From: a virus
Lineage: Duplodnaviria > Heunggongvirae > Uroviricota > Caudoviricetes
IMG/VR virus record: IMGVR_UViG_2609460125_000002
Span: 1-9,600 of that record
Reading direction: 5' to 3' (one strand)
Length of the DNA stretch: 9,600 nucleotides
The stretch's first letter is position 1, and each line of letters starts with the position of its first letter. Shown here piece after piece: positions 1-9,600 of the stretch. The translations under genes and the position numbers were made by a program. Below the pieces are notes generated by a model that did not search any database, was not told the DNA's origin, and saw nothing but the letters and a program-made list of their open reading frames with translations.

Positions 1-274
1 AACATCAATGTCGCGTAAAGGTAACTGTTACGACAACGCTCCGATGGAAAGCTTCTGGGGAACGCTGAAAAATGAGAGCCTGAGCCACTATCGTTTAATA
101 ACCGGGATGAAGCCATCTCAGTAATACGGGAATACATTGAGATTTTCTACAATCGTCAGCGTCGTCACTCTCGTCTGGGGAATATCTCCCCGGCAGCCTT
201 CAGGGAAAAATATCATCAGATGACTGCTTAAAAAAAGAACAAATGGTAGTGTCCGCTATTGCCAGTACACCTCA
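1..274 (+). mobile_element. 3' portion of an IS3-family insertion sequence (OrfB C-terminus plus right terminal region); exact IS not identified; right boundary approximate (269-274)
   Basis: Translation of 2..124 gives TSMSRKGNCYDNAPMESFWGTLKNESLSHYR, the conserved DDE-region signature of IS3-family OrfB. The adjacent integrase reading frame becomes non-integrase sequence at about 270-275. Terminal bases ...CAGTACA / ...CCTCA fit the TG...CA tips of IS3-family ends. Confidence 0.6.
2..231 (+). pseudogene. IS3-family transposase OrfB, C-terminal fragment with a frameshift
   Basis: Frame 2 reads ...GNCYDNAPMESFWGTLKNESLSHYRLITGMKPSQ* (stop 122-124). Frame 1 from 97 reads NNRDEAISVIREYIEIFYNRQRRHSRLGNISPAAFREKYHQMTA* (stop 229-231), the expected continuation of the same domain. 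A single missing base near 95-97 (cgttt-aataacc) joins the two. Confidence 0.6.
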
Positions 275-939
275 TCAAGGTCTGTAACGTTGGAACGGCG
301 AAGGCCTGTCGTGATTGCAAACATGACCACAGGGAAGAAATGAGGAGCAATTTCTGCAAACAGGCGCTTCGATTCCTCCTCTGTAAGCCATCTGATTCGT
401 CCATTCTTAACGCGTGGTGTTGATATTTTGGGCGCCCTGTCAAGCCATCCCCATTCAACAGCCATATTGAGAATAGCGCGAAGTATTGCCAGATGCCGCG
501 TCTTCGTTCCTTTGCTTGCCAGCTTTGGTTTATACTCCGGCACTGGCTTGCCAAGCCGCAAACACCTGTCCCGGCTCATTTCCCAGTTCAGGCGATGGCG
601 GCGGTTTTCCATCCCGTCTACCGCCTCCATTATTTTTTCTGTTGTTATGTCAGAGAGAATGGTTTCTCTGAAGTGCAACATCCAGAACGATATAATGCTC
701 TTGTCATCATCAATGGACTTCTTATCCGATTTCTCACGCAGCCACCGTATGCAGGCTTCCTTGAATAGCTTTTTCGGCGATTCCCCGAGATTTTTTACTC
801 TCCACGCTTCTGCTTTCAGACGATCGTGAAGTTCTTGCGCTTGCCTTTTGTCCGATGTTTCAAGAGAGCGTCTAACTCTTGATCCATCTGGCGCGACGAA
901 ATCGCAGTGCCACGTGCCACCGCGTAGTTTGATTGACAT
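256..939 (-). pseudogene. int: Phage tyrosine integrase, N-terminal fragment (227-aa ORF); catalytic C-terminal domain absent
   Basis: ATG at 939 preceded by AGGAGG (8 nt spacing). Protein has the N-terminal/core-binding region and ends just after a box-I-like motif AITTGLRRSNVTDL; no box II (HxxR...Y) follows. The last ~6 codons and the stop (256-258) appear to be supplied by the IS end. Confidence 0.7.
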
Positions 940-1235
940 GCTTTAACCTCCTGCACATCAACCGCATTCACCGCGCTATTGTGTCTCACAGACTTAAGCG
1001 CCGCAATGCAGTCTGACTTGCAAATGCGATATGGACTTTTAGGTTTATCTGGATTTATCTTTGCGGCCTGAAGTCGTCCACTTCGTATCCACTGTGTGAT
1101 AGTGCCTTTGTCTACCTTCAGATACGACGCAGCTTCTTCACGAGTGAAGATTTCTTCTTCCACCTGGAATCTCCATTTGTTGGATTGACATGATTGCGGT
1201 AGGTCTGGATATCTTGAGAAATGAACTGGCCTCAT
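816..1235 (-). CDS. xis: Excisionase-like helix-turn-helix protein (Xis/AlpA type); start uncertain (ATG 1235 with weak RBS, or GTG 1163 with GGAGA RBS)
   Basis: Motif FTREEAASYLKVDKGTITQWIRSGRLQAAKI resembles excisionase-family HTH domains; position immediately upstream of int. The 3' end overlaps int by 124 nt in another frame. Confidence 0.5.
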   Translation of the reverse strand: MRPVHFSRYPDLPQSCQSNKWRFQVEEEIFTREEAASYLKVDKGTITQWIRSGRLQAAKINPDKPKSPYRICKSDCIAALKSVRHNSAVNAVDVQEVKACQSNYAVARGTAISSRQMDQELDALLKHRTKGKRKNFTIV

Positions 1236-1262
1236 CGAGTGTGAGGCTGTGTGATTCCATAG

Positions 1263-1607
1263 TTAGTCCTTGCGTAGCTCGCTGATTCTTCTGTAAGTCT
1301 CTGGTGCTTTGTTTCCGTGTATCTTCATTTCAGACTTCAACAGAGCAACGAGGGAATCCCATTCGTTGAGGATGCCTTTGAATGCCGGAACGCGCTTTGC
1401 AACCTTGCCGAATGAATCTCTGATTTCTGGAATCTGCTCAACAAGTGCAACGCATCGTCTGAAATCGGCTGCGTCATGGGGAGCGCCGAAGTGATGACCA
1501 TAGATATTCTTTTTCAGGCCACATGCGATTGAGGCAAGAGTTGCGCTACTGATGCCAACATCGCCAGTCGATTGCCATTTCAAAACCTTCATAGCCAAAT
1601 CTGACAT
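1263..1607 (-). CDS. Hypothetical phage protein, 114 aa
   Basis: ATG at 1607 with GGAGA 6 nt upstream, directly downstream of a terminator hairpin. The ORF-track start at 1634 lies inside that hairpin and is probably an artefactual extension. Confidence 0.5.
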   Translation of the reverse strand: MSDLAMKVLKWQSTGDVGISSATLASIACGLKKNIYGHHFGAPHDAADFRRCVALVEQIPEIRDSFGKVAKRVPAFKGILNEWDSLVALLKSEMKIHGNKAPETYRRISELRKD

Positions 1608-1617
1608 TTCTTGTCTC

Positions 1618-1645
1618 CAATAAAAAACCGCCATCAGGCGGATTG
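1618..1645 (-). terminator. Intrinsic terminator (minus strand): stem CCGCC/GGCGG, loop UGAU, followed by U6
   Basis: Plus strand 1622-1641 aaaaaaCCGCCatcaGGCGG; on the minus strand the hairpin is followed by UUUUUU and then the RBS of the next gene. The loop contains the UGA stop (1634-1636) of the upstream 55-aa ORF. Confidence 0.5.
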
Positions 1646-1801
1646 GTGTTCTTTCAGTTCTTCAATTCGAATATTGGTTACTTCTGCATGTGCTATCTGC
1701 GCCCATATCATCCAGTGGTCATAGCAGTCGTTGATGTTCTCTGCTTCGATAACTCTGTTGAATGGCTCTCCATTCCATTCACCTGTGACTCGGAAGTGCA
1801 T
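1634..1801 (-). CDS. Small hypothetical protein, 55 aa (MHFRVTGEWNGEPFNRVIEAENINDCYDHWMIWAQIAHAEVTNIRIEELKEHQSA); not in ORF track
   Basis: ATG 1799-1801 preceded by GGAG (7 nt spacing), itself directly after a hairpin + U-rich terminator. The overlapping 61-aa track ORF (1708..1893) lacks such signals. Confidence 0.4.
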   Translation of the reverse strand: MHFRVTGEWNGEPFNRVIEAENINDCYDHWMIWAQIAHAEVTNIRIEELKEHQSA

Positions 1802-1810
1802 TTATCATCT

Positions 1811-1872
1811 CCATAAAACAAAACTCGCCGTAGCGAGTTCAGATAAAAGAAATCCCCGCGAGTGCGAGGATT
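1811..1872 (-). terminator. Tandem terminator-like hairpins (minus strand)
   Basis: Hairpin AACTCGC-cgta-GCGAGTT (1822-1839) followed on the minus strand by UUUGUUUUAU; second hairpin AATCC-N12-GGATT (1851-1872) followed by UCUUUUAU. Confidence 0.4.
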
Positions 1873-1901
1873 GTTATTCACCTTTGACGGCAAGTTGTAG
1901 G

Positions 1902-2435
1902 TTAGCCACGGTTAACCTCCTGAGGCGGTTCTGGTAGAGGCATCCAGTGGGTTACTCCATGCCATATACCAGTTAAGGTTTCAAACCTTGGCTCTCTGCC
2001 TTTCTGTGTCTTGGCATATTCATTCCTTGTATATACGCATTGTCTAACTGCATATCCATTCCATCCAATAACTGTTTGTCTAATTTCCGGCATCCGCTCA
2101 CTACAGCTTATCCAACCATCCGGAGTTACCGGCACTTGCTGGGCGGTATAAAGCGGTGTTATATCTGCCCGAAAATTACATGCTTTATGCAGCCGCACCC
2201 ACCGTTCGACTTCTGCTTTGTCAGAATACATACCAGTGAACGTGTTATATTCACGGTCAATTTGCGTGAATGTTACCTTCCACGCCACCGGCTCTGCTTC
2301 CAGCGATGCCAGTGCGATACGCAGGGCAGCCAGGATATTCCCCTGGTAATCATCAAGCCCGAAAGGAAGCTCATCACGAACGCTTTCATAATCGTTGATA
2401 GCCTGCTGCAGCCATTCTCTTGTGATAGTGCTCAT
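1902..2435 (-). CDS. DUF551-domain phage protein, 177 aa
   Basis: C-terminal region DGWISCSERMPE...GIWHGVTHWMPLPEPP matches the recalled DUF551 signature (W...THWMPLPEPP). ATG preceded by AGGAGAGG; start overlaps the upstream stop (ATGA). Confidence 0.65.
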   Translation of the reverse strand: MSTITREWLQQAINDYESVRDELPFGLDDYQGNILAALRIALASLEAEPVAWKVTFTQIDREYNTFTGMYSDKAEVERWVRLHKACNFRADITPLYTAQQVPVTPDGWISCSERMPEIRQTVIGWNGYAVRQCVYTRNEYAKTQKGREPRFETLTGIWHGVTHWMPLPEPPQEVNRG

Positions 2436-3166
2436 GATGCCTCTCCTTTACCTGCTTCGGTGACGTTTATTCCAGCGTTGTGCAGTGCCTCAAGAACCTG
2501 ATGCTGCCTGTAAACCATTTCAGTGTGGTAAGGCTTGTCAAAATCGACGCGATGCAACATGCTATAGCATTGCGGAAGCACAACCTCCCGCAACTCCAGC
2601 TCAGCAATGCGCTTCTCTGCGGCTTCCAGCTTCTCGCGCATATCGTCAACGTACTCGACCAGAGATCCGCCAGCAGGAATTTCGCATTCCTCGACCAGTT
2701 GGAAGTAGATATCAGCTGCGGCCCGTGTGTTGCTATGCCTAGCGTCGCCCATCTCACCTTCACGAAGAGCATCGCGTTCGGCGGTAAGATTGGCTATTTT
2801 GCTGTCTTTGCCTTCCAGCTCAACGCGCAGCCTCCCAACCGTAAGCGCAATATCCTCGTTCTCCTGGTCGCGTGATTTGATGTATTGCTGGTTTCTTTCC
2901 CGTTCATCCAGTAATGCCAGCACGGTAGCTGGACTGGCTGCTGCGATGAATTCAGCATTGGCCTGCTGTTCCATTTGGAAATCTTCATCGAAACCGCTTT
3001 CAGGATGCGCTCCTTCAATTCTGCAAATGGGAATATATCCAGCAACTTCTCGATGAATTAGCGCATCATCACCATCAAATTGGCCCTCTCCATATTCGAG
3101 CGACCACGCCCCACACGTTGCTTTCTCTGCCTTTTCACGCAGTGCCTGATAATCAATCTGGCTCAC
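2432..3166 (-). CDS. Ead/Ea22-like family phage protein, 244 aa, with central coiled-coil
   Basis: N-terminus [22 protein letters not shown]...ANAEFIAAASPATVLALLDERERNQQ resembles the Ead/Ea22-like N-terminal domain common in enterobacterial prophages. GTG start overlaps the upstream stop (GTGA). Confidence 0.6.
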   Translation of the reverse strand: MSQIDYQALREKAEKATCGAWSLEYGEGQFDGDDALIHREVAGYIPICRIEGAHPESGFDEDFQMEQQANAEFIAAASPATVLALLDERERNQQYIKSRDQENEDIALTVGRLRVELEGKDSKIANLTAERDALREGEMGDARHSNTRAAADIYFQLVEECEIPAGGSLVEYVDDMREKLEAAEKRIAELELREVVLPQCYSMLHRVDFDKPYHTEMVYRQHQVLEALHNAGINVTEAGKGEAS

Positions 3167-3408
3167 TGGTTGCCCCCCTGCTTTTCTGCCTTCAACACCA
3201 TGCGAGAACCATCATCCAACTCCCAAGCGATCTCACCACCTTCAGCCATGACCAGTCGCCACACCAATTGAGCAGCCTCATTGGTAACATCACGACCTGG
3301 ATCATTGCCAACGCGCATACGTCCACCTTCAACATCGCGCATTTTTGCCAGCATGATAGTTTTTGATAGCGGTGAAAAACCAAGCTGTAGTCGTGCTGAA
3401 TTACTCAC
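3163..3408 (-). CDS. Hypothetical phage protein, 81 aa
   Basis: GTG start at 3408 with AGGAGG 7 nt upstream; GTGA overlap with the upstream stop; ends ...QGGNQ. Confidence 0.5.
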
Positions 3409-3572
3409 TGGTTGCCTCCTTTGCGCAACATCGCATTCAGATATTTGTTTTGATTTACTGATGGAAAAGAATTTCTCTTAAGCAATTCCTCTCTCGATGG
3501 CATTGGCTTTACGCGTTGGCGAATAATCATTTTTGCCGGAAGAATGCCGGGATTGTATGCAAGTCCTCTCAT
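3405..3572 (-). CDS. Small hypothetical protein, 55 aa ([55 protein letters not shown])
   Basis: ATG at 3572 with GAGGAA 7 nt upstream, immediately after the stop of the 97-aa gene. The longer track ORF (to 3722) overlaps that gene by 140 nt and is probably an extension artefact. Confidence 0.4.
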
Positions 3573-3582
3573 GGTAAATTCC

Positions 3583-3876
3583 TCAGTCATTACTGATAGC
3601 GCCATAGCGTGAGCGGTAATTACGCAGGCGCGGGTCAATTTCAGGGAAGTGGGTGTATGTGGCTTTGCGGAATGGTCGGATTGATGTCTGGTAAATTCGC
3701 TCGCGTTCTTCTTTCTCTGCAAGCCATATACAGTGGCGAAATCCCTTTTCCTCTTTCGTTTCCTGCGGTAGCGACATTATCAGGTCGTAGTTTTTCCTGA
3801 ATTTATCCAGCACCTCCGATACGGAATTGCCGGAACAGCGGCGCGCGTCGTCCGCACCATATAGAGGCGCTGGCAT
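3583..3876 (-). CDS. Hypothetical phage protein, 97 aa
   Basis: ATG at 3876 with AGGAGAA 5 nt upstream; no recognisable motif. Confidence 0.5.
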
Positions 3877-3889
3877 GATTTTCTCCTGA

Positions 3890-4396
3890 TTAAATTGCGT
3901 GAATAGCGTGACGAGGGAAGGGGAGAGTTACTGGTGCAAAGGGTATATCGTCGTCAAAATCCATAGGAGGTTCGTTGTGTTGTGCTGGTGATGATTGCTG
4001 CTGTGGCTTCTGTGATTGCCTGCTGGCTGCTTGTTGTTTGCTGTCGCCAATGCCGCCAAGCATTTGCATCACGCCATTAATTCCGACATGAACCTCGGTT
4101 GTGTAACGGTCTTGCCCTGACTGGTCTTTCCACTTTCTGGTTCTCAGCATTCCCTCGAAATAAATCTGATCACCTTTTTTCACATACTGCCCCACGACCT
4201 CAGCCAGTTTCCCGGATACAGCAACACGATGCCATTCAGTCAATTCCTTTTGCTCGCCAGTATTTTTATCTCGCCATTGTTCTGATGTGGCTATTGTCAG
4301 GTTAGCGAACGCTGTTCCTGATGATGAGTATCGGACTTCCGGGTCTTGTCCTACCCGACCAAGGATAATCACCTTATTTACGCCTCTGCTTGCCAT
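3890..4396 (-). CDS. ssb: Single-stranded DNA-binding protein (SSB), 168 aa, with a 15-residue extension after the DDDIPF tail
   Basis: N-terminal OB-fold sequence [23 protein letters not shown]...TEWHRV...[12 protein letters not shown] and the acidic tail ...[13 protein letters not shown] are textbook SSB. The ORF then continues [15 protein letters not shown] before TAA at 3890-3892. Confidence 0.9.
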
Positions 4397-5104
4397 TTAT
4401 GCCACCTGTTTTAGTTCGTTAACTCTGATGTTCATTACCTGAACGCATTTAGCCTGCGCCTCCTCGTTGCCAGCCATTAATTGCCAGTCACGCTGATAAC
4501 GCTCGATGAGTTTTTTCTTGTCAGTTTCTGTTGACGCATAATCGCTGAAGTCTTTCAGGATTTGCTCGCAGTCAACCGATGGAGATTTCTGGTTGGTATT
4601 TTCTGGTGATGGTTTGTTATCTGATGCTGGGATTGCCCATCCCGGCAGCGATGGAGGGAGCCAGTAAAATCCTGTTCCATCCTTGAGTTTTGCCCTGTGC
4701 CATCCCTGCTTTTTATCGAGAGATGTTTGTGCGAAACCTTCCTCAAGGTTATACAGATACCGACCGATTCCCCACTGAACGGCAGCGCGCTTCATTGCAC
4801 CGGAACGACCACCTTTGACGGCTTCTACCTGCGTGTTTTCAGCAGCATCCCATTTGGTTACCCATTCGGAATCAATCTTGATTGATATGCCGCATTCAAC
4901 GCCGCCGTTGTTGGGAATATCGCGGTATTCATTGCGCCATCCTGCTTTGCCGCAAACATCGTCCAGGCGTTTCATGATTGCCCTGTTCGTGACATAAGCC
5001 AGCACCATAGCCCACACTTTTCCATCGCGTGTTTTACCGCTTTGCTGTATTCGCCATTCGATATCTTCAGGGCTGAATGGCTCATCGAATTTATTCAAAT
5101 CCAT
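4397..5104 (-). CDS. Rad52/Sak-type single-strand annealing protein (recombinase), 235 aa
   Basis: Motifs GAMKRAAVQWGIGRYLY and GKAGWRNEY resemble the Rad52 annealing-domain signature; sits immediately upstream of ssb (TAAATG junction), a typical phage recombination module. RBS GAGGTG. Confidence 0.65.
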   Translation of the reverse strand: MDLNKFDEPFSPEDIEWRIQQSGKTRDGKVWAMVLAYVTNRAIMKRLDDVCGKAGWRNEYRDIPNNGGVECGISIKIDSEWVTKWDAAENTQVEAVKGGRSGAMKRAAVQWGIGRYLYNLEEGFAQTSLDKKQGWHRAKLKDGTGFYWLPPSLPGWAIPASDNKPSPENTNQKSPSVDCEQILKDFSDYASTETDKKKLIERYQRDWQLMAGNEEAQAKCVQVMNIRVNELKQVA

Positions 5105-5203
5105 AATTCACCTCAGAATGGACATGGCCCAAGGAAATAACGCTGGTTTAATACTTCGACTCTGGACAAATTAAGGCATACCCGCATTCCTTCGCGGTCG
5201 CCA

Positions 5204-5362
5204 TTATGGCGATACCAGAGAGCTTTCTGCGTGTACATGCGTCTCTGTAACTTGCTCTCCTTCACTGTGGTTGCAAGTGACATGCATATCTCCTTCGTTA
5301 CCGATTAATTCTTTCATCTGACGAATGAATTCTTCGTCTGACCAGTTATCTGTAAAACTCAT
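5204..5362 (-). CDS. Small hypothetical protein, 52 aa (MSFTDNWSDEEFIRQMKELIGNEGDMHVTCNHSEGEQVTETHVHAESSLVSP); not in ORF track
   Basis: ATG overlaps the stop of the kil-like gene (ATGA) with AGGAA upstream. Lies between kil and the annealase, where P22 carries arf; no sequence evidence for that identity. Confidence 0.35.
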   Translation of the reverse strand: MSFTDNWSDEEFIRQMKELIGNEGDMHVTCNHSEGEQVTETHVHAESSLVSP

Positions 5363-5511
5363 TTCCTGCGATACCACGGAAGGTTGATAGCTGATTTCAT
5401 CGCTTTATTTGCTTCAAGCCACATTTTTGAATCACCAATAAATCTGGCTATTACTGCTTTGTTCTGTGCAGCACGAAGCATCTGGTGATTGATGGCTATT
5501 TCATTGCGCAT
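5359..5511 (-). CDS. kil: Kil-like host cell-division inhibitor, 50 aa (MRNEIAINHQMLRAAQNKAVIARFIGDSKMWLEANKAMKSAINLPWYRRK); not in ORF track
   Basis: Core VIARFIGDSKMW closely resembles lambda Kil (IATFIGDEKMF, as recalled); position directly downstream of the cIII-like gene as in lambda; GAGG 8 nt upstream of ATG. Confidence 0.5.
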   Translation of the reverse strand: MRNEIAINHQMLRAAQNKAVIARFIGDSKMWLEANKAMKSAINLPWYRRK

Positions 5512-5627
5512 AATAAGACCTCAACTCTTTTCCATCCGTCACGTAATTTACGGGTGATTCGCTCAAGTAAAGATTCATTTAGTTGGAAGGCACCCATGCG
5601 AGCGCCTCCCGCGATTGCGTAAATCAT
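5496..5627 (-). CDS. cIII: CIII-like FtsH protease inhibitor, 43 aa (MIYAIAGGARMGAFQLNESLLERITRKLRDGWKRVEVLLCAMK); not in ORF track
   Basis: Contains ESLLERITRKLRDGWKR, matching the essential central helix of lambda CIII as recalled, and an MxYAIAG N-terminus; AAGGAA RBS 7 nt upstream. Confidence 0.6.
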   Translation of the reverse strand: MIYAIAGGARMGAFQLNESLLERITRKLRDGWKRVEVLLCAMK

Positions 5628-5651
5628 GGGTGGTTCCTTATATTGGTTTTA

Positions 5652-6620
5652 TTAGTAGGTTATTTTTGTTGCGAATACTTCGCCTTTTACGATGGCTGTT
5701 ATGATATTTTTAGCAACATCTTCTGATGCACCAACCTTGATAAGGTCAACAAGTATTTTGTTATTTACTTCTTTCCGGTGAGCTTTATCTTTTGCTCTAC
5801 GCTCTTCTTCGTCCTTGATTCTTTTTTCTTCTGCTATTCTGGCTTGCTCTTTTGCTTCAGCCTCGCGACGGATTCGTTCAGCCTCCTCCTGTGCTTTTCT
5901 GCGTTCTGCTTCAATTGCCGCATGCTTTTCTCTTTCAGCTCGTTCCGCCGCCTCTTTTGCTTCGCGCTGTGCTCGTTGCTCGGCTTCAATGCGTTCACGC
6001 TCTGCTCGTTCCGCAGCGGCCTTAGCTTCTGCTTCTCGCCTTGCTGCTGCTTCAATTTCGGCTTTTGCCTTTGCTTCGGCTTCTGCTCTGACTTTCTCTT
6101 CAGCTTCTCTTTTTAAGCGTTCTTCATGCTCTCGCTTTTCCTGCTCCGCTTTGAGTCTTGCCTCTTCTCTTTGGCGGTCAAATTCGCGATCCATCAAAAT
6201 CGCTATTTCATGGTCAGACTCAATTTGCTTTGCGAGAGCTTCAGCTGCTGCCTTAGCTTCTTCTTCGGCTTTAATCCGCGCCTGCTCCTCCTCATAATCA
6301 GTAAGAGGCTGGCGCGCCTTGGCTTTCAGTTCATCAAGGCGATCACGCACTGTCTTGCGGTTGGCATCAATTAGCTTTGGAATTTCCTTCAGTTCAGCAA
6401 CAAGGTCTTTGCCAAGACCATCGAGATATGTTTTCGTCTGCGCAACTTTATACGCCAGAGAAGCGATCTCCTTTCTGCCCTTTGCCGTTGTGATATCAGG
6501 CACAAAGGACATAACTTCACGTTCAACCTTTTGGAGAATTTCTTCAATCTGGTCGGCAGACTTAAATACAGTCATTGCATTTGCTTTTTCAATAACAACT
6601 AAATCTGTTACTTCACTCAT
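5652..6620 (-). CDS. Hypothetical phage protein, 322 aa: N-terminal domain, ~150-residue E/A/K/R-rich coiled-coil (TolA-like low complexity), short C-terminal domain
   Basis: ATG at 6620 with GGAGG 5 nt upstream, directly after a terminator hairpin; the track start at 6674 reads through that terminator. The underlying DNA is repetitive and produces spurious plus-strand ORFs. Confidence 0.6.
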   Translation of the reverse strand: MSEVTDLVVIEKANAMTVFKSADQIEEILQKVEREVMSFVPDITTAKGRKEIASLAYKVAQTKTYLDGLGKDLVAELKEIPKLIDANRKTVRDRLDELKAKARQPLTDYEEEQARIKAEEEAKAAAEALAKQIESDHEIAILMDREFDRQREEARLKAEQEKREHEERLKREAEEKVRAEAEAKAKAEIEAAARREAEAKAAAERAERERIEAEQRAQREAKEAAERAEREKHAAIEAERRKAQEEAERIRREAEAKEQARIAEEKRIKDEEERRAKDKAHRKEVNNKILVDLIKVGASEDVAKNIITAIVKGEVFATKITY

Positions 6621-6630
6621 ATATCCTCCA

Positions 6631-6662
6631 TCAAAAAAATTGCCCTCACACTGGAGGGCAAA
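6631..6662 (-). terminator. Intrinsic terminator (minus strand): stem TGCCCTC/GAGGGCA, 6-nt loop, followed by U7
   Basis: Plus strand 6633-6660 aaaaaaaTTGCCCTCacactgGAGGGCA; on the minus strand the hairpin precedes UUUUUUU and then the GGAGG RBS of the 322-aa gene. Confidence 0.5.
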
Positions 6663-6721
6663 GAAGATTTCCAATAATCAGAACAAGTCGGCTCCTGTTT
6701 AGTTACGAGCGACATTGCTCC

Positions 6722-6749
6722 GTGTATTCACTCGTTGGAATGAATACAC
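6722..6749. repeat. Inverted repeat GTGTATTCA-N10-TGAATACAC
   Basis: Perfect 9-bp arms at 6722-6730 and 6741-6749 in the 134-bp intergenic gap between the 67-aa and 322-aa genes; not followed by a U-run. Confidence 0.4.
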
Positions 6750-6754
6750 AGTGC

Positions 6755-6958
6755 TTATTCGCGAGCTTTGAGCATTGCGTCTGCAAACTTATATGCAGCG
6801 CTTGCTGCATAATTAACAGCTCCATCAGAATCATTATCGATAATCGATGGATTGCTAATCATTGCTTGCATAGCCTTTGCCGCGAAGTAATCACGTAATG
6901 TCGCATCACTTGCCATTTCTGGGCGTTTGATATCTGCTTCATAAAACTCGCACATCAT
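6755..6958 (-). CDS. Hypothetical phage protein, 67 aa
   Basis: ATG overlaps the stop of the upstream 98-aa gene (ATGA) with GGGAGA upstream; no recognisable motif. Confidence 0.5.
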   Translation of the reverse strand: MMCEFYEADIKRPEMASDATLRDYFAAKAMQAMISNPSIIDNDSDGAVNYAASAAYKFADAMLKARE

Positions 6959-7251
6959 TCATCTCCCAGAGCCTTGCTGATTGCTGCAAGACCTTTATTA
7001 ACAGCTCCATACCATTCTGGATATGTTGTCGTTGTTCTATTTTTGGATTGCTTAAGTAATAACTGAAGTGCTTCGAGAAGGTCAGGTGCTGCCGCTATTA
7101 GATTGGCATCTTCAATACATTGAACTTCCTCACAGATTGCAATATACGAACGCCAGCCTGCGCCATTTTCAAGTGAGTCTGCCTGGATGATTTTAATCTC
7201 ATCGCCATCCATCATTATTTCCCACTTACCTTCAGTACCTTTAAATTCCAT
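6955..7251 (-). CDS. Hypothetical phage protein, 98 aa, sharing a short motif with the Ead/Ea22-like N-terminal domain
   Basis: ATG with AGAGG 6 nt upstream after a terminator; motif EDANLIAAAPDLLEALQ parallels ANAEFIAAASPATVLALL in the 244-aa protein. Confidence 0.55.
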   Translation of the reverse strand: MEFKGTEGKWEIMMDGDEIKIIQADSLENGAGWRSYIAICEEVQCIEDANLIAAAPDLLEALQLLLKQSKNRTTTTYPEWYGAVNKGLAAISKALGDE

Positions 7252-7271
7252 GTTAGCCTCTGTTGTTTATG

Positions 7272-7298
7272 CCAAAAATAAAGGCCGACTATGCGACC
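7272..7298 (-). terminator. Intrinsic terminator (minus strand): 5-bp stem with one G-U pair, loop CAUAGU, followed by UUUAUUUUU
   Basis: Plus strand 7274-7298 aaaaataaaGGCCGactatgCGACC; the loop contains the UAG stop (7289-7291) of the 207-aa gene. Confidence 0.4.
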
Positions 7299-7912
7299 TC
7301 GGAAGGAAGTCCAATCATCTTATTCAAATCTTCTACCCGTAAAGCAGGAAGTGCTGTACTTGCTTTATCTGCTTCTTTTGGTAGCAATTCTTTGCTTTCA
7401 GGCCAAACTTCAATAAGTCGCTTAACTGTTGTGACTGAGTTCAAAGCAGCCCATACATTTGATTCGATATCCTTTTTCTTGGCTTCAAGTTTTTGTTGCA
7501 ATGCGCAGATTTCATCAAACCTTTTTGTTATTTTGTGTTCTGCATCAAACATGCATTTATCTTTGGTTGGAGTAGGGAGAAATATATCTTCGCCATTGCC
7601 GTCTTTCCCATATGAATGCCATCCAACCCTTCTGCCAGATACAGTCAGATAAATTGAAGTAGAACGAAATTCGTATGAGTAAAATGAACATCCCATCTTT
7701 TCAAGTTCTTCACTTATAGCTACCAACTTGGATGATAACTGATCCACTTCCTCAGTTTTCTTTTTACCGCCAAACGCAATAACTCTGGCGTCAAGTGCAA
7801 GCTGGTTCTTTAACTTTGTTACTTCTTCAAGTTCAGTGAAAACCCCAGACTTAATTAAAGCGTTACGAGCGATTTCCTCTTTCATTCTCGTAGTTAAGCG
7901 GATTGATGACAT
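7289..7912 (-). CDS. Hypothetical phage protein, 207 aa, unknown function
   Basis: ATG at 7912 with GAGG 8 nt upstream, after a terminator hairpin; the track start (7927) is a TTG extension. No catalytic motif or strongly hydrophobic segment recognised. Confidence 0.55.
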   Translation of the reverse strand: MSSIRLTTRMKEEIARNALIKSGVFTELEEVTKLKNQLALDARVIAFGGKKKTEEVDQLSSKLVAISEELEKMGCSFYSYEFRSTSIYLTVSGRRVGWHSYGKDGNGEDIFLPTPTKDKCMFDAEHKITKRFDEICALQQKLEAKKKDIESNVWAALNSVTTVKRLIEVWPESKELLPKEADKASTALPALRVEDLNKMIGLPSEVA

Positions 7913-7936
7913 ATTAATTCCTCTCAAATAAGAAAA

Positions 7937-7962
7937 TAAAGGCCACCATCAGGCAGCCTTGT
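7937..7962 (-). terminator. Intrinsic terminator (minus strand): hairpin with UGAU loop followed by a U-rich tract
   Basis: Plus strand 7939-7960 AAGGCcaCCatcaGGcaGCCTT preceded by aaaataaa; the loop contains the UGA stop (7949-7951) of the ral-like gene; same loop sequence as the terminator at 1628-1641. Confidence 0.4.
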
Positions 7963-8143
7963 TGTTCTGTTTACCAAGTTCTCTGGCAATCATTGCCGTA
8001 GTTTGTATTGCCCATTTATCGACATATTTCCCATCTTCCATTACAGGAAACATTTCTTCAGGCTTAACCATGCATTCCGATTGCAGTTTGCATCCATTGC
8101 ATCGCTTGAATTGTCCACACCATTGATTTGTATCAATAGTCAT
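7949..8143 (-). CDS. ral: Ral-like restriction-alleviation protein, 64 aa, Cys-rich
   Basis: Four cysteines at residues 9, 15, 18 and 24; strongly resembles lambda Ral as recalled; located in the leftward operon downstream of the N-like gene, as ral is in lambda. Confidence 0.5.
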   Translation of the reverse strand: MTIDTNQWCGQFKRCNGCKLQSECMVKPEEMFPVMEDGKYVDKWAIQTTAMIARELGKQNNKAA

Positions 8144-8275
8144 ACGGATAGTCCTGGTATTGTTCCATCACATCCTGAGGATGCTCTTCGAACTCTTCAA
8201 ATTCTTCTTCCATATCTCACCTCAAATAAGTGGTTTGCTGCCAAAACAATGAACCATCCGGAAATTCCAGATAGT

Positions 8276-8503
8276 TCATAATTCACTCTTCAATACTTCC
8301 AACTTACTAATCGCCGATAGATATCCGCGCTGATAGGGCATCATCATTCCTTCGAGCTTGCCACTTCTTAACTCCTCCCTGAGCAATTGTATTGCTTGAT
8401 CAATAACCTCTGCCTTAGCGTCCTTTATGGCTTGCTTGCGGGGCTTTGCTTTCTGCTTTGGCAGATTTCTCAAGCATGATGGAATGTATGTCTGATTCAC
8501 CAC
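8276..8503 (-). CDS. Hypothetical phage protein, 75 aa (GTG start immediately after the N-like stop)
   Basis: ORF begins at a GTG directly abutting the TAA of the upstream gene (TAAGTG), with GAGG just upstream; lysine-rich, no recognised motif. Confidence 0.4.
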   Translation of the reverse strand: MVNQTYIPSCLRNLPKQKAKPRKQAIKDAKAEVIDQAIQLLREELRSGKLEGMMMPYQRGYLSAISKLEVLKSEL

Positions 8504-8776
8504 TTACCTCGCTGTCAGTTGTTTTGATTTCCGGTAGCCTGCCGCGTAAATGGCTACGTTTGGCAGGCAAATACTTCCACTGCATTCATCTGCCTTCTTG
8601 CAGCGAAGGCTTCCGAGTGATGCTGCTTTATCTGCTCTGACGCAACCAGAGAGCTTTAGCGCAATTTTTCGTGCCAGTCGCTGCTCTTGCATTGCCTGTT
8701 CACGTTGAGCCTGTCTGCGTGCTCTGCGGCGATTTCTGGCGTTATCGTCAGCCAGATATGTAATGACTACTGCCAT
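8504..8776 (-). CDS. N-like transcription antitermination protein, 90 aa, with an arginine-rich motif
   Basis: ATG at 8776 with GGAGGT 4 nt upstream; N-terminal DDNARNRRRARRQAQREQ resembles the arginine-rich boxB-binding motif of lambdoid N proteins; first gene of a terminator-punctuated leftward operon. Confidence 0.45.
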   Translation of the reverse strand: MAVVITYLADDNARNRRRARRQAQREQAMQEQRLARKIALKLSGCVRADKAASLGSLRCKKADECSGSICLPNVAIYAAGYRKSKQLTAR

Positions 8777-8934
8777 GTTGACCTCCGATGATTGACTTTG
8801 GCGGTGACGCGACGGGTGCTTATCTTCCGGTTGCTGTCGTGCAGCTGCACTTCACGTCACCCTGAAGTGGCACACTGAATTTGGCCACCTGAACAGAGGT
8901 GATATGCTCACCTCAGAACAACACAGGTGCTCCA

Positions 8935-9600
<666 letters not shown>

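Follow-up and report, generated by a model that had tools for sequence, protein, structure and literature searches.

A mosaic block of catalogued early genes between ssb and xis, probably the distal part of the early-left operon of a lambdoid prophage

The block described here lies in a window of 9,600 nt (the whole stretch of DNA that was analysed, positions 1 to 9,600 of the IMG/VR record IMGVR_UViG_2609460125_000002), in which one strand carries, in this order, N (PF25694), Ral, Nmad5, CIII, Kil, Rad52, SSB, the block itself, xis and int. It consists of seven minus-strand ORFs at 1263-3876, here called g1 to g7, with lengths of 97, 55, 81, 244, 177, 55 and 114 aa. The gene count, positions and sizes, as well as the flanking by ssb and xis, agree with the preliminary description of this DNA. 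In profile searches all seven ORFs matched a Pfam and/or a PHROG family (E 1e-16 to 1e-63), and judged by these matches they are real genes and not chance ORFs. The longest mechanical ORFs exceed the chosen ones in g2 (105 aa, with a TTG start) and in g7 (123 aa); the shorter starts, already chosen in the preliminary description, are backed by the profile matches, the N-termini of homologues and the PGAP annotation. The antisense and alternative-frame ORFs within g4 that match PHROGs 13760 and 27631 were read not as genes but as shadow ORFs, produced by the conserved coiled coil of Ea22. An extra copy of a 5' fragment of xis is also present in the window. Rfam and tRNA scans gave no matches, and no Chi sites were observed in the window (0.29 expected). 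The features of the locus are the following:

4397..5104, minus strand: Rad52/Rad22-family single-strand annealing protein of the recombination module (PF04098, E 5e-26)
3890..4396, minus strand: ssb, recombination module (from its translation; an E. coli prophage of nearly identical sequence has it annotated as ssb)
3583..3876, minus strand: g1, assigned to abc2, anti-RecBCD protein 2, 97 aa (PF11043 full length, E 4e-63; phrog_656)
3405..3572, minus strand: g2, DUF2737 protein, 55 aa, of the HK97 gp38 / HK620 hkaI type (PF10930, E 5e-31; phrog_1117)
3404..3416, minus strand: junction motif GGCAACCAGTGAG, copy 1 (SD plus GTGA stop/start overlap), at g2/g3
3163..3408, minus strand: g3, DUF7446 protein, 81 aa, with a GTG start overlapping the g2 stop (PF24233, E 6e-18; phrog_1578)
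3162..3174, minus strand: junction motif GGCAACCAGTGAG, copy 2, at g3/g4; HK620 and HK140 have nearly the same junction in front of their Ea22-like gene
2432..3166, minus strand: g4, Ead/Ea22-like protein, 244 aa, GTG start (PF13935, E 8e-31)
1902..2435, minus strand: g5, 177 aa, two domains, a predicted alpha/beta domain at the N-terminus and DUF551 at the C-terminus (PF04448 at residues 107-172, E 8e-16)
1821..1872, minus strand: two terminator-like hairpins in the g5/g6 gap, bounding the orf55 cassette on its upstream side and shared with lambda, HK140 and HF4s
1634..1801, minus strand: g6, assigned to orf55 of lambda / phage 434, 55 aa (phrog_676; 96% identical to lambdap35 and 434 ORF55)
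1628..1641, minus strand: intrinsic-terminator hairpin CCGCCTGATGGCGG followed by a T-run, across the g6 stop codon, conserved in lambda and HF4s
1263..1607, minus strand: g7, 114 aa, of the large unnamed phage family phrog_1229, with a predicted seven-helix fold (AF2 pLDDT 93.5)
816..1163, minus strand: xis, 115 aa from a GTG start, bounding the block on its downstream side (phrog_2907 excisionase over its full length, E 1.5e-52; HTH_17)

The genes had been described as chained by overlapping stop and start codons, and this holds for three of the six internal junctions, g2/g3 and g3/g4 (GTGA) and g4/g5 (ATGA), through which g2 to g5 are probably translationally coupled. The remaining three junctions are gaps of 10 nt (g1/g2), 100 nt (g5/g6, holding two terminator-like hairpins) and 26 nt (g6/g7, holding a terminator hairpin); these gaps contain ribosome-binding sites or the three hairpins. 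The 13-nt junction is duplicated and brackets g3. Its exact sequence is absent from the six phage loci compared, and the junctions of HK620 and HK140 differ from it by one A/G. Terminator-like sites were observed 10 times, against 3.1 expected. A consensus scan of 700-4500 found no sigma-70-like promoters (4.8 expected), and the same type of scan found no sigma-70 promoter upstream of g6 or g7 that could give either of them its own transcription, as in a moron. In an intact phage, transcription would start from pL and, by N-mediated antitermination, would run through the three intrinsic terminators of the block. In this genome an IS911 element is found 80 nt upstream of N, and int is interrupted by IS600; the operon would thus be cut off from its promoter and may be silent.

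The first gene of the block could be assigned from its sequence. The match of g1 to PF11043 covers residues 1-97 of 97 (209.9 bits, cut-off 25), and phrog_656, named 'abc2 anti-RecBCD', matches it at E 6e-54. Furthermore, along its whole length (97/97 residues) g1 shares about 90% identity with P22 Abc2 (PDB 8b1t chain A / 8b1u; E 3e-57 against 8b1t_A), whose structure has been solved on RecBCD and whose Pro68 engages the host PpiB. From 8b1t_A it differs by 9 substitutions in 97 residues; Pro68 is kept, and just two substitutions fall in residues 3-52, the ordered RecC-binding part. The Rad52 and SSB genes lie directly upstream. The Abc2 family is found without exception alongside a phage recombinase, and abc2 of HK620 is positioned after SSB. 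In HK620, stimulation of Sak4 recombineering by abc2 was not observed. On this sequence evidence g1 is Abc2, the final gene of a Rad52-SSB-Abc2 recombination module, rather than an ea gene. The earlier statement that no gene of the block could be assigned from sequence is therefore wrong for g1, and it is also undercut by g6, which matches lambda Orf55, and by g4, a member of the family of the pro-lysogenic lambda Ea22. [quoted passage not shown] The partners with which Abc2 acts in P22, namely Abc1, Arf and Erf, are all absent from this locus.

The genes g2, g3 and g5 belong to families of the DUF type. The DUF2737 score of g2 was 106.9 bits (gathering threshold 25), and the same slot after abc2 is occupied by such a gene in HK620, HK140 and E. 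coli prophages. For g3, DUF7446 scored 65 bits (gathering threshold 24.1); its family comprises 372 clusters, all of them from prophages or phages of Enterobacteriaceae, mostly of 81 aa and every one named hypothetical, and g3 is highly conserved rather than fast-evolving. The DUF551 label given earlier to g5 is correct according to the Pfam profile (59.2 bits, gathering threshold 22), and a 100% identical protein is annotated in Shigella flexneri and E. coli. The AF2 model of g5 was moderate (pLDDT 74.5, pTM 0.40) and had no significant fold match in the PDB by Foldseek; weak matches to IcmQ/HORMA-like folds (TM <=0.23) were not taken as evidence. Sequence searches of the PDB with g2 to g7 gave chance-level matches only.

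The Ead/Ea22 label of g4 is likewise correct, with 108 bits for PF13935 (cut-off 27). By BLASTP, residues 1-124 alone align to lambda Ea22, including LLDERERNQQYIK-RDQENEDIALTVG-LRVELE, so that the part common to both proteins is the conserved N-terminal segment plus the coiled coil. The C-terminal ~120 residues showed no alignment with the dimeric C-terminal domain of lambda Ea22 (NMR structure), and g4 had no sequence match in the PDB; HK140_035 and g4 have equal length. The Ead/Ea22 family is known for its variable C-terminal domains. A pro-lysogenic phenotype and tetramer formation have been published for the Ea22 of lambda and of Stx phages, and that role was demonstrated on proteins with other C-terminal domains than that of g4. 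By its profile and alignments g4 is thus a member of the Ead/Ea22 family with a C-terminus unrelated to that of lambda, and any developmental role would be transferred from its relatives.

The identity of g6 with lambda Orf55 reaches 96.4% over 55/55 residues, which identifies this gene, by homology, as orf55. The conservation extends to its surroundings: the cassette and its hairpins recur in lambda, HK140 and HF4s, where the conservation stops sharply at the edges, and the HK140 record annotates a hairpin identical to that at 1628..1641 as 'rho-independent terminator'. In the window, g7 is inserted between orf55 and xis. Orf55 has been considered as a T7 Gp2-like modulator or binder of RNAP, a speculative proposal from modelling only (PMC8614690).

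The last gene, g7, had no match in Pfam or NCBIfam. Its family counts no fewer than 2,842 clusters (clustered at 50% identity, E<=1e-3; a lower bound) and is highly conserved rather than fast-evolving, with invariant residues S20, P43, D45, D48, R51, C52 and W83 in a motif S...PxDxxDxxRC...W. Foldseek comparison of the g7 model with the PDB gave a best E of 3.8 and a TM of at most 0.30, comparison with BFVD returned uncharacterised homologues only, and the family profile found nothing among PDB sequences. Unnamed xis-adjacent genes in Stx1a/Stx2a phages, Huey and mEp234 are 95-99% identical to g7, and HK022 shares DNA with the g7 end of the block. The family extends to lambdoid, P22-like, N15-like, Mu-like, Vibrio and actinobacterial phages; the relatives in Vibrio, Yersinia PY54, Arthrobacter and Nonanavirus phages occupy other genomic positions. 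Neighbourhood analysis of 120 IMG/VR loci of the family, located by a degenerate motif scan, revealed no obligate partner; recombination genes (RdgC, PDDEXK exonuclease) were recurrent neighbours. Domain fusions of g7 relatives were rejected as a clue to function: they are heterogeneous, many of those in E. coli are evidently deletion fusions, and the fusion to a CCA-adding/HD enzyme is a singleton. The invariant polar constellation of Ser20-Ser21, Asp45, Asp48, Arg51, Cys52 and Trp83 could constitute a site for catalysis or for the binding of ligands or partners, through which g7 would act on DNA/RNA transactions of the host or the phage; g7 would then have a new enzymatic or host-takeover activity and would not be structural filler, a reading that we regard as improbable. 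The sole hints of such an activity are the RdgC/PDDEXK exonuclease neighbourhood and that one enzyme fusion.

Regarding the distribution of the block, pieces of it match 566 phage records (HF4s, HK140, HK106, HK620, HK022, Sf6 and Stx phages) and 5,242 of 5,426 E. coli genomes, and no matching record covers >=80% of it, which is the signature of mosaicism. The backbone order Abc2-(DUF5405)-DUF2737-X-Ea22-DUF551-...-xis recurs in HK620, HK140 and several genomes. This mosaic distribution argues against g2 to g7 acting together as one multi-protein system.

The preliminary description had placed the block in a region where anti-defence functions tend to sit, and had proposed it as a candidate location for an undescribed function. 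Searches with PADLOC, Pfam, PHROGs and NCBIfam linked no protein except Abc2 to defence or anti-defence, and among the structures to which Foldseek matched the predicted models of g7 and g5 there was no protein whose function is known. Could at least one of g2, g3, g5 and g7 nevertheless be, besides Abc2, a dedicated inhibitor of host immunity? RecBCD, the target of Abc2, is an immunity hub; Ral, an anti-restriction protein, is encoded in the same operon, and Lar-like genes occur in the corresponding region of relatives. Moreover, further counter-defence genes are enriched in accessory regions where one is already known, and regions with abc2 have been used in this way in a published screen; small, fast-swapping and early-expressed proteins would also suit such a role. 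However, neither sequence (Pfam, PHROGs, NCBIfam and PADLOC for g2, g3, g5 and g7) nor fold (g5 and g7) matched a characterised anti-defence protein, g3 and g7 are highly conserved and not fast-evolving, and the g7 family is also found where anti-defence neighbours are not seen. We consider a dedicated inhibitor unlikely. Far less probable, and disfavoured here, is a prophage system of defence or superinfection exclusion protecting the lysogen. Prophage accessory regions sometimes hold such systems, but the PADLOC scan of the seven proteins gave nothing meaningful (the best match was PbeC, on the coiled coil of g4, E 0.023, 11 bits), the block has neither an enzymatic or sensor domain nor a promoter of its own nor a conserved gene pairing, and its genes belong to an operon that a lysogen keeps repressed.

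A much stronger contender, to which we give somewhat less than an even chance, is that prophage decay has left the block in this genome as silent cargo, without current function. The IS600 in int, the IS911 between N and the expected pL site, and the duplicated 5' fragment of xis speak for this, as does the lack, within the window, of any promoter-like site in the block or upstream of it. Among the database relatives of g7, many are deletion fusions of the kind that prophage decay typically produces. Against this, all seven ORFs are full length in comparison with the functional HK620, HK140, lambda and P22. It should also be noted that the window ends within both IS elements, so the remaining prophage may still lie beyond.

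[quoted passage not shown] It would consist of two parts, g1 as the end of the recombination module and g2 to g7 as six mosaic accessory genes, which phages apparently exchange as cassettes by way of short conserved junctions. The preliminary view of a block mostly uncharacterised and without a positive sign of new function was borne out, with mosaicism as an added trait. Above all, the block does not point to a new system: it combines catalogued lambdoid early genes in a new mosaic, and for one of them, Abc2, the mechanism has been solved. It is ordinary apart from the large unnamed family of g7, a modest surprise; being large, conserved, structurally unmatched and unnamed, phrog_1229 is a reasonable target for phage accessory-gene screens. 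The practical value of the analysis is a corrected annotation, with abc2 in the recombination module, orf55 identified, and the terminators and cassette junctions located.

[quoted passage not shown] In contrast, orf60a, orf61, orf63, orf73 and ea8.5 are missing from it, DUF2737, DUF7446, DUF551 and g7 are present, and the C-terminal domain of its Ea22 is unrelated; to antagonise RecBCD it has Abc2, encoded after the recombinase, whereas lambda has Gam, encoded before it. The xis-adjacent genes of Stx1a/Stx2a phages, Huey and mEp234 resemble g7 at 95-99% identity, and none has been characterised. With P22 the block shares an Abc2 ~90% identical, and with HK620 (hkaD-hkaJ) and HK140 (genes 31-38) the order abc2, DUF2737, X, Ead/Ea22-like, DUF551, a DNA identity of 95-97% in pieces and the junction sequence upstream of the Ea22-like gene. 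Its recombinase is of the Rad52 type with SSB, instead of Erf (P22) or Sak4 (HK620), and it has no abc1 or arf. Between DUF2737 and Ea22 the block carries DUF7446 in place of the HK97 gp37-like gene, and before xis it has the orf55 cassette and g7.

The seven small minus-strand genes between ssb and xis, called here g1 to g7 in transcription order from the ssb side, form a block that works like, and belongs to, the lambdoid exo-xis/ea accessory region. The block is part of a complete lambdoid early-left operon, present in the window on one strand in the order N, Ral, Nmad5, a 340-aa coiled-coil protein, CIII, Kil, a Rad52-family protein, SSB, the block, xis and the 5' part of int. All the long conserved ORFs of the window are carried by the minus strand.

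Features of the early-left operon and its flanks (window coordinates)
about 8857-9600, IS911, 98% identity, orfA frameshifted in the ORF list
8504-8776, minus, N antiterminator
7949-8143, minus, Ral (anti-restriction)
7289-7927, minus, Nmad5 (nucleotide-modification-associated), directly downstream of ral
5652-6674, minus, 340-aa highly charged coiled-coil protein, between CIII and the upstream accessory genes
4397-5104, minus, Rad52-family annealing protein
3890-4396, minus, ssb, flanking the block beside g1
3583-3876, minus, g1, 97 aa, Abc2
3405-3572, minus, g2, 55 aa, DUF2737
3163-3408, minus, g3, 81 aa, GTG start, DUF7446
2432-3166, minus, g4, 244 aa, GTG start, Ead/Ea22
1902-2435, minus, g5, 177 aa, C-terminal DUF551
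1634-1801, minus, g6, 55 aa, lambda orf55
1263-1607, minus, g7, 114 aa, phrog_1229
816-1163, minus, xis, matching phrog_2907 over its full length
1-286, IS600, 98% identity, int interrupted at about 275-288

The preliminary description had cautiously placed these genes in a lambdoid accessory region, which proved sound. Its seven genes were confirmed with the same sizes (97, 55, 81, 244, 177, 55 and 114 aa), and they are genes and not chance ORFs, since each protein gave Pfam and/or PHROG family matches with E from 1e-16 to 1e-63. The shorter starts that it had chosen for g2 and g7 (105 and 123 aa in the mechanical ORF list) are also upheld, because the Pfam match of the long g2 form begins only at residue 51, all distant g7 homologues start with MSDLAMKVL, PGAP calls g7 at 114 aa, and the 123-aa start would fall within a terminator stem. 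The genes had further been described as chained by overlapping stop/start codons. This is the case for g2/g3 (GTGA), g3/g4 (GTGA) and g4/g5 (ATGA), but not for g1/g2 (gap of 10 nt), g5/g6 (100 nt, with two terminator-like hairpins) or g6/g7 (26 nt, with a GC hairpin and then a T-run). Between g7 and xis, a 40-aa ORF (1138-1260, minus) matches the first ~28 residues of the phrog_2907 excisionase family, and looks like a duplicated xis 5' fragment left by mosaic recombination.

The earlier statement that none of the genes could be assigned a function did not hold: g1 is an Abc2 with an established function, g6 is a lambda gene and g4 comes from a family for which a phenotype has been published. 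The identification of g1 as Abc2, made by sequence comparison, comes from a PF11043 match over its full length (209.9 bits), a match to phrog_656 "abc2 anti-RecBCD" and ~90% identity to the P22 Abc2 chain of the cryo-EM structures 8b1t/8b1u. Only two of the nine substitutions with respect to P22 Abc2 fall within residues 3-52, the part that is ordered on RecC, and g1 retains Pro68, which in Abc2 occupies the active site of the host PpiB. The mechanism of P22 Abc2 is known: RecBCD is made to serve phage recombination instead of degrading phage DNA. As Abc2-family genes never occur without a phage recombinase, and HK620 likewise has the order recombinase, SSB, abc2, this gene is best counted with the recombination module.

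For the following genes, family membership was found for DUF2737, DUF7446, Ead/Ea22, DUF551 and orf55, as for Abc2. The g2 product is of the HK97 gp38/HK620 hkaI type. The DUF7446 family of g3 comprises 372 clusters, restricted to Enterobacteriaceae prophages and phages, and every member is named hypothetical. The alignment of g4 with lambda Ea22 covers residues 1-124 and takes in the highly conserved LLDERERNQQYIK...RDQENEDIALTVG motif; over its C-terminal ~120 residues g4 bears no relation to the C-terminal domain of the lambda protein, and so lacks the lambda-type C-terminal domain of Ead/Ea22. This agrees with published work, in which the family combines a constant N-terminal/coiled-coil scaffold with C-terminal domains that can be exchanged. 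When Ea22-family genes are deleted from lambda and phi24B, host survival drops and lysogenisation is altered; the effect of the family is pro-lysogenic. Two ORFs at 2727-3056 (plus) and 2794-3045 (minus), antisense or in another frame to the Ea22 coiled-coil region, match PHROGs 13760 (E 8.5e-25) and 27631, families probably built from mis-called shadow ORFs. In g5, an N-terminal alpha/beta domain precedes DUF551, described in the literature as a portable domain found also in YfdS and some Ea22 variants; g5 has identical annotated counterparts in Shigella flexneri and E. coli. Finally, g6 is 96% identical to lambda orf55 (lambdap35) and phage 434 ORF55, for which binding to RNA polymerase in the manner of T7 Gp2 has been proposed in a published model.

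What little interest remains in the block lies in the family of g7: it is large and conserved, and has neither a name nor a structural match. Neither Pfam nor NCBIfam has a family for g7, which matched phrog_1229; no Pfam-A model matched any of 69 diverse members, and the family profile found nothing among PDB sequences. From 12 homologues, AlphaFold2 gave a confident model (pLDDT 93.5, pTM 0.87) with seven helices. Foldseek, proposed earlier as a check, gave no match to this model in the PDB (best E 3.8, TM at most 0.30), and its BFVD matches, among them proteins of Clavibacter phage CN1A and a Sylvanvirus, come from unrelated viruses and are uncharacterised. When 1.84 billion representatives were searched with a profile, at least 2,842 clusters (at 50% identity) passed E<=1e-3, and 639 passed E<=1e-10. 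By tblastn the family was present in 278 records of Proteobacteria and Actinobacteria phages, including Stx phages, P22-like Salmonella phages, Yersinia PY54, a Nonanavirus, ~150 Vibrio phages and Arthrobacter phages. Among 134 representatives (median 38% identity to g7), W11, G18, S20, S21, P43, D45, D48, R51, C52, L55, P60 and W83 are at least 95% conserved, with S20, P43, D45, D48, R51, C52 and W83 invariant. Some of the conserved residues look like helix caps, and the invariant Asp-Asp-Arg-Cys set suggests a functional site.

A degenerate DNA scan of IMG/VR for PxDPxDFxRC gave 120 loci in 95 clusters, all 120 verified by the family HMM. No obligate neighbour was found in these clusters, the commonest neighbour family occurring in 6 of the 95; those that recur are DNA-transaction and accessory genes of the early region (RdgC, PDDEXK exonuclease, Mu GemA, DUF3164, ASCH and DUF5131). 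In a single case, a 558-aa representative (P0411), a g7-like domain lies C-terminal to a CCA-adding/poly(A) polymerase head, an RNA-binding domain and an HD domain. Many E. coli "fusions", in which g7 is joined to an N-terminus of the Ea22, Erf, Kil or MazZ type, look as if they arose by deletion in decaying prophages, as g7 is the last pL gene before xis.

Nearer the promoter, Nmad5 and ral form a second accessory cluster. The 340-aa protein has no Pfam match; it is annotated "TolA" by PGAP and "similar to phi80 Agt / Gam antitoxin" in the HF4s record. A 98-aa ORF (6955-7251, minus) without Pfam match contains the motif ANLIAAAPDLLEAL. Similar stretches are ANAEFIAAASP in g4 and the N-terminal extension of P0376, a representative of the g7 family. 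With this ORF the operon may hold a second Ead-like N-terminal module that has diverged.

What the analysis itself shows is the identity and order of the genes, the hairpins and the overlaps. By analogy with lambda and P22, in an intact phage the block would be transcribed from pL once the repressor is lost, N-modified RNA polymerase would pass through its three intrinsic terminators, and g2-g5 would be translationally coupled. In this genome the operon is severed from pL, because IS911 begins just 80 nt upstream of the N start codon and a consensus scan found no sigma-70-like promoter upstream of N or in 700-4500 around the block. In 4400-9000, the scan gave only two weak consensus matches, below chance expectation. 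Both window ends fall inside IS elements, IS600 and IS911, which are typical of Shigella and E. coli.

Nothing points to a new system. The proposed defence-profile search, run with PADLOC on the seven proteins, gave no defence component, and in the tests applied the block genes qualified neither as known defence systems nor as autonomous morons. Parts of the block match 566 phage records, including HF4s, HK140, HK106, HK620, HK022, Sf6 and Stx phages, at 88-97% identity, and are present in 5,242 of 5,426 complete E. coli genomes; no single record among those searched covers 80% of it. The backbone abc2-(DUF5405)-DUF2737-X-Ead/Ea22-DUF551-...-xis recurs in HK620, HK140 and several genomes with identical g5. 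From these alignments, the composition is classical lambdoid mosaicism.

The 13-mer GGCAACCAGTGAG, a Shine-Dalgarno tail plus the GTGA overlap, occurs exactly twice, at g3/g4 (3162-3174, minus) and g2/g3 (3404-3416, minus), with a chance expectation of only 0.22 matches even allowing two mismatches. HK620 and HK140 have an almost identical junction, GGCAGCCAGTGAG, ahead of their Ea22-like gene, and there the upstream gene is HK97 gp37-like and ends in ...LRKGGSQ; g2 ends in ...LRKGGNQ and g3 in ...KQGGNQ. The 13-mer is a candidate cassette-exchange linker, and g3 lies between two copies of it, as expected if cassettes swap by recombination at such junctions. The orf55 cassette (~270 nt, about 1625-1880, minus), consisting of two upstream hairpins, orf55 and a downstream terminator, is nearly identical in the window, lambda (NC_001416, about 29100-29370), HK140 and HF4s, with similarity ending abruptly at both edges; the HK140 record labels the downstream hairpin "rho-independent terminator". 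The cassette combination is new only trivially, as in every lambdoid mosaic, and in comparison with lambda, g7 is an additional gene between the orf55 cassette and xis.
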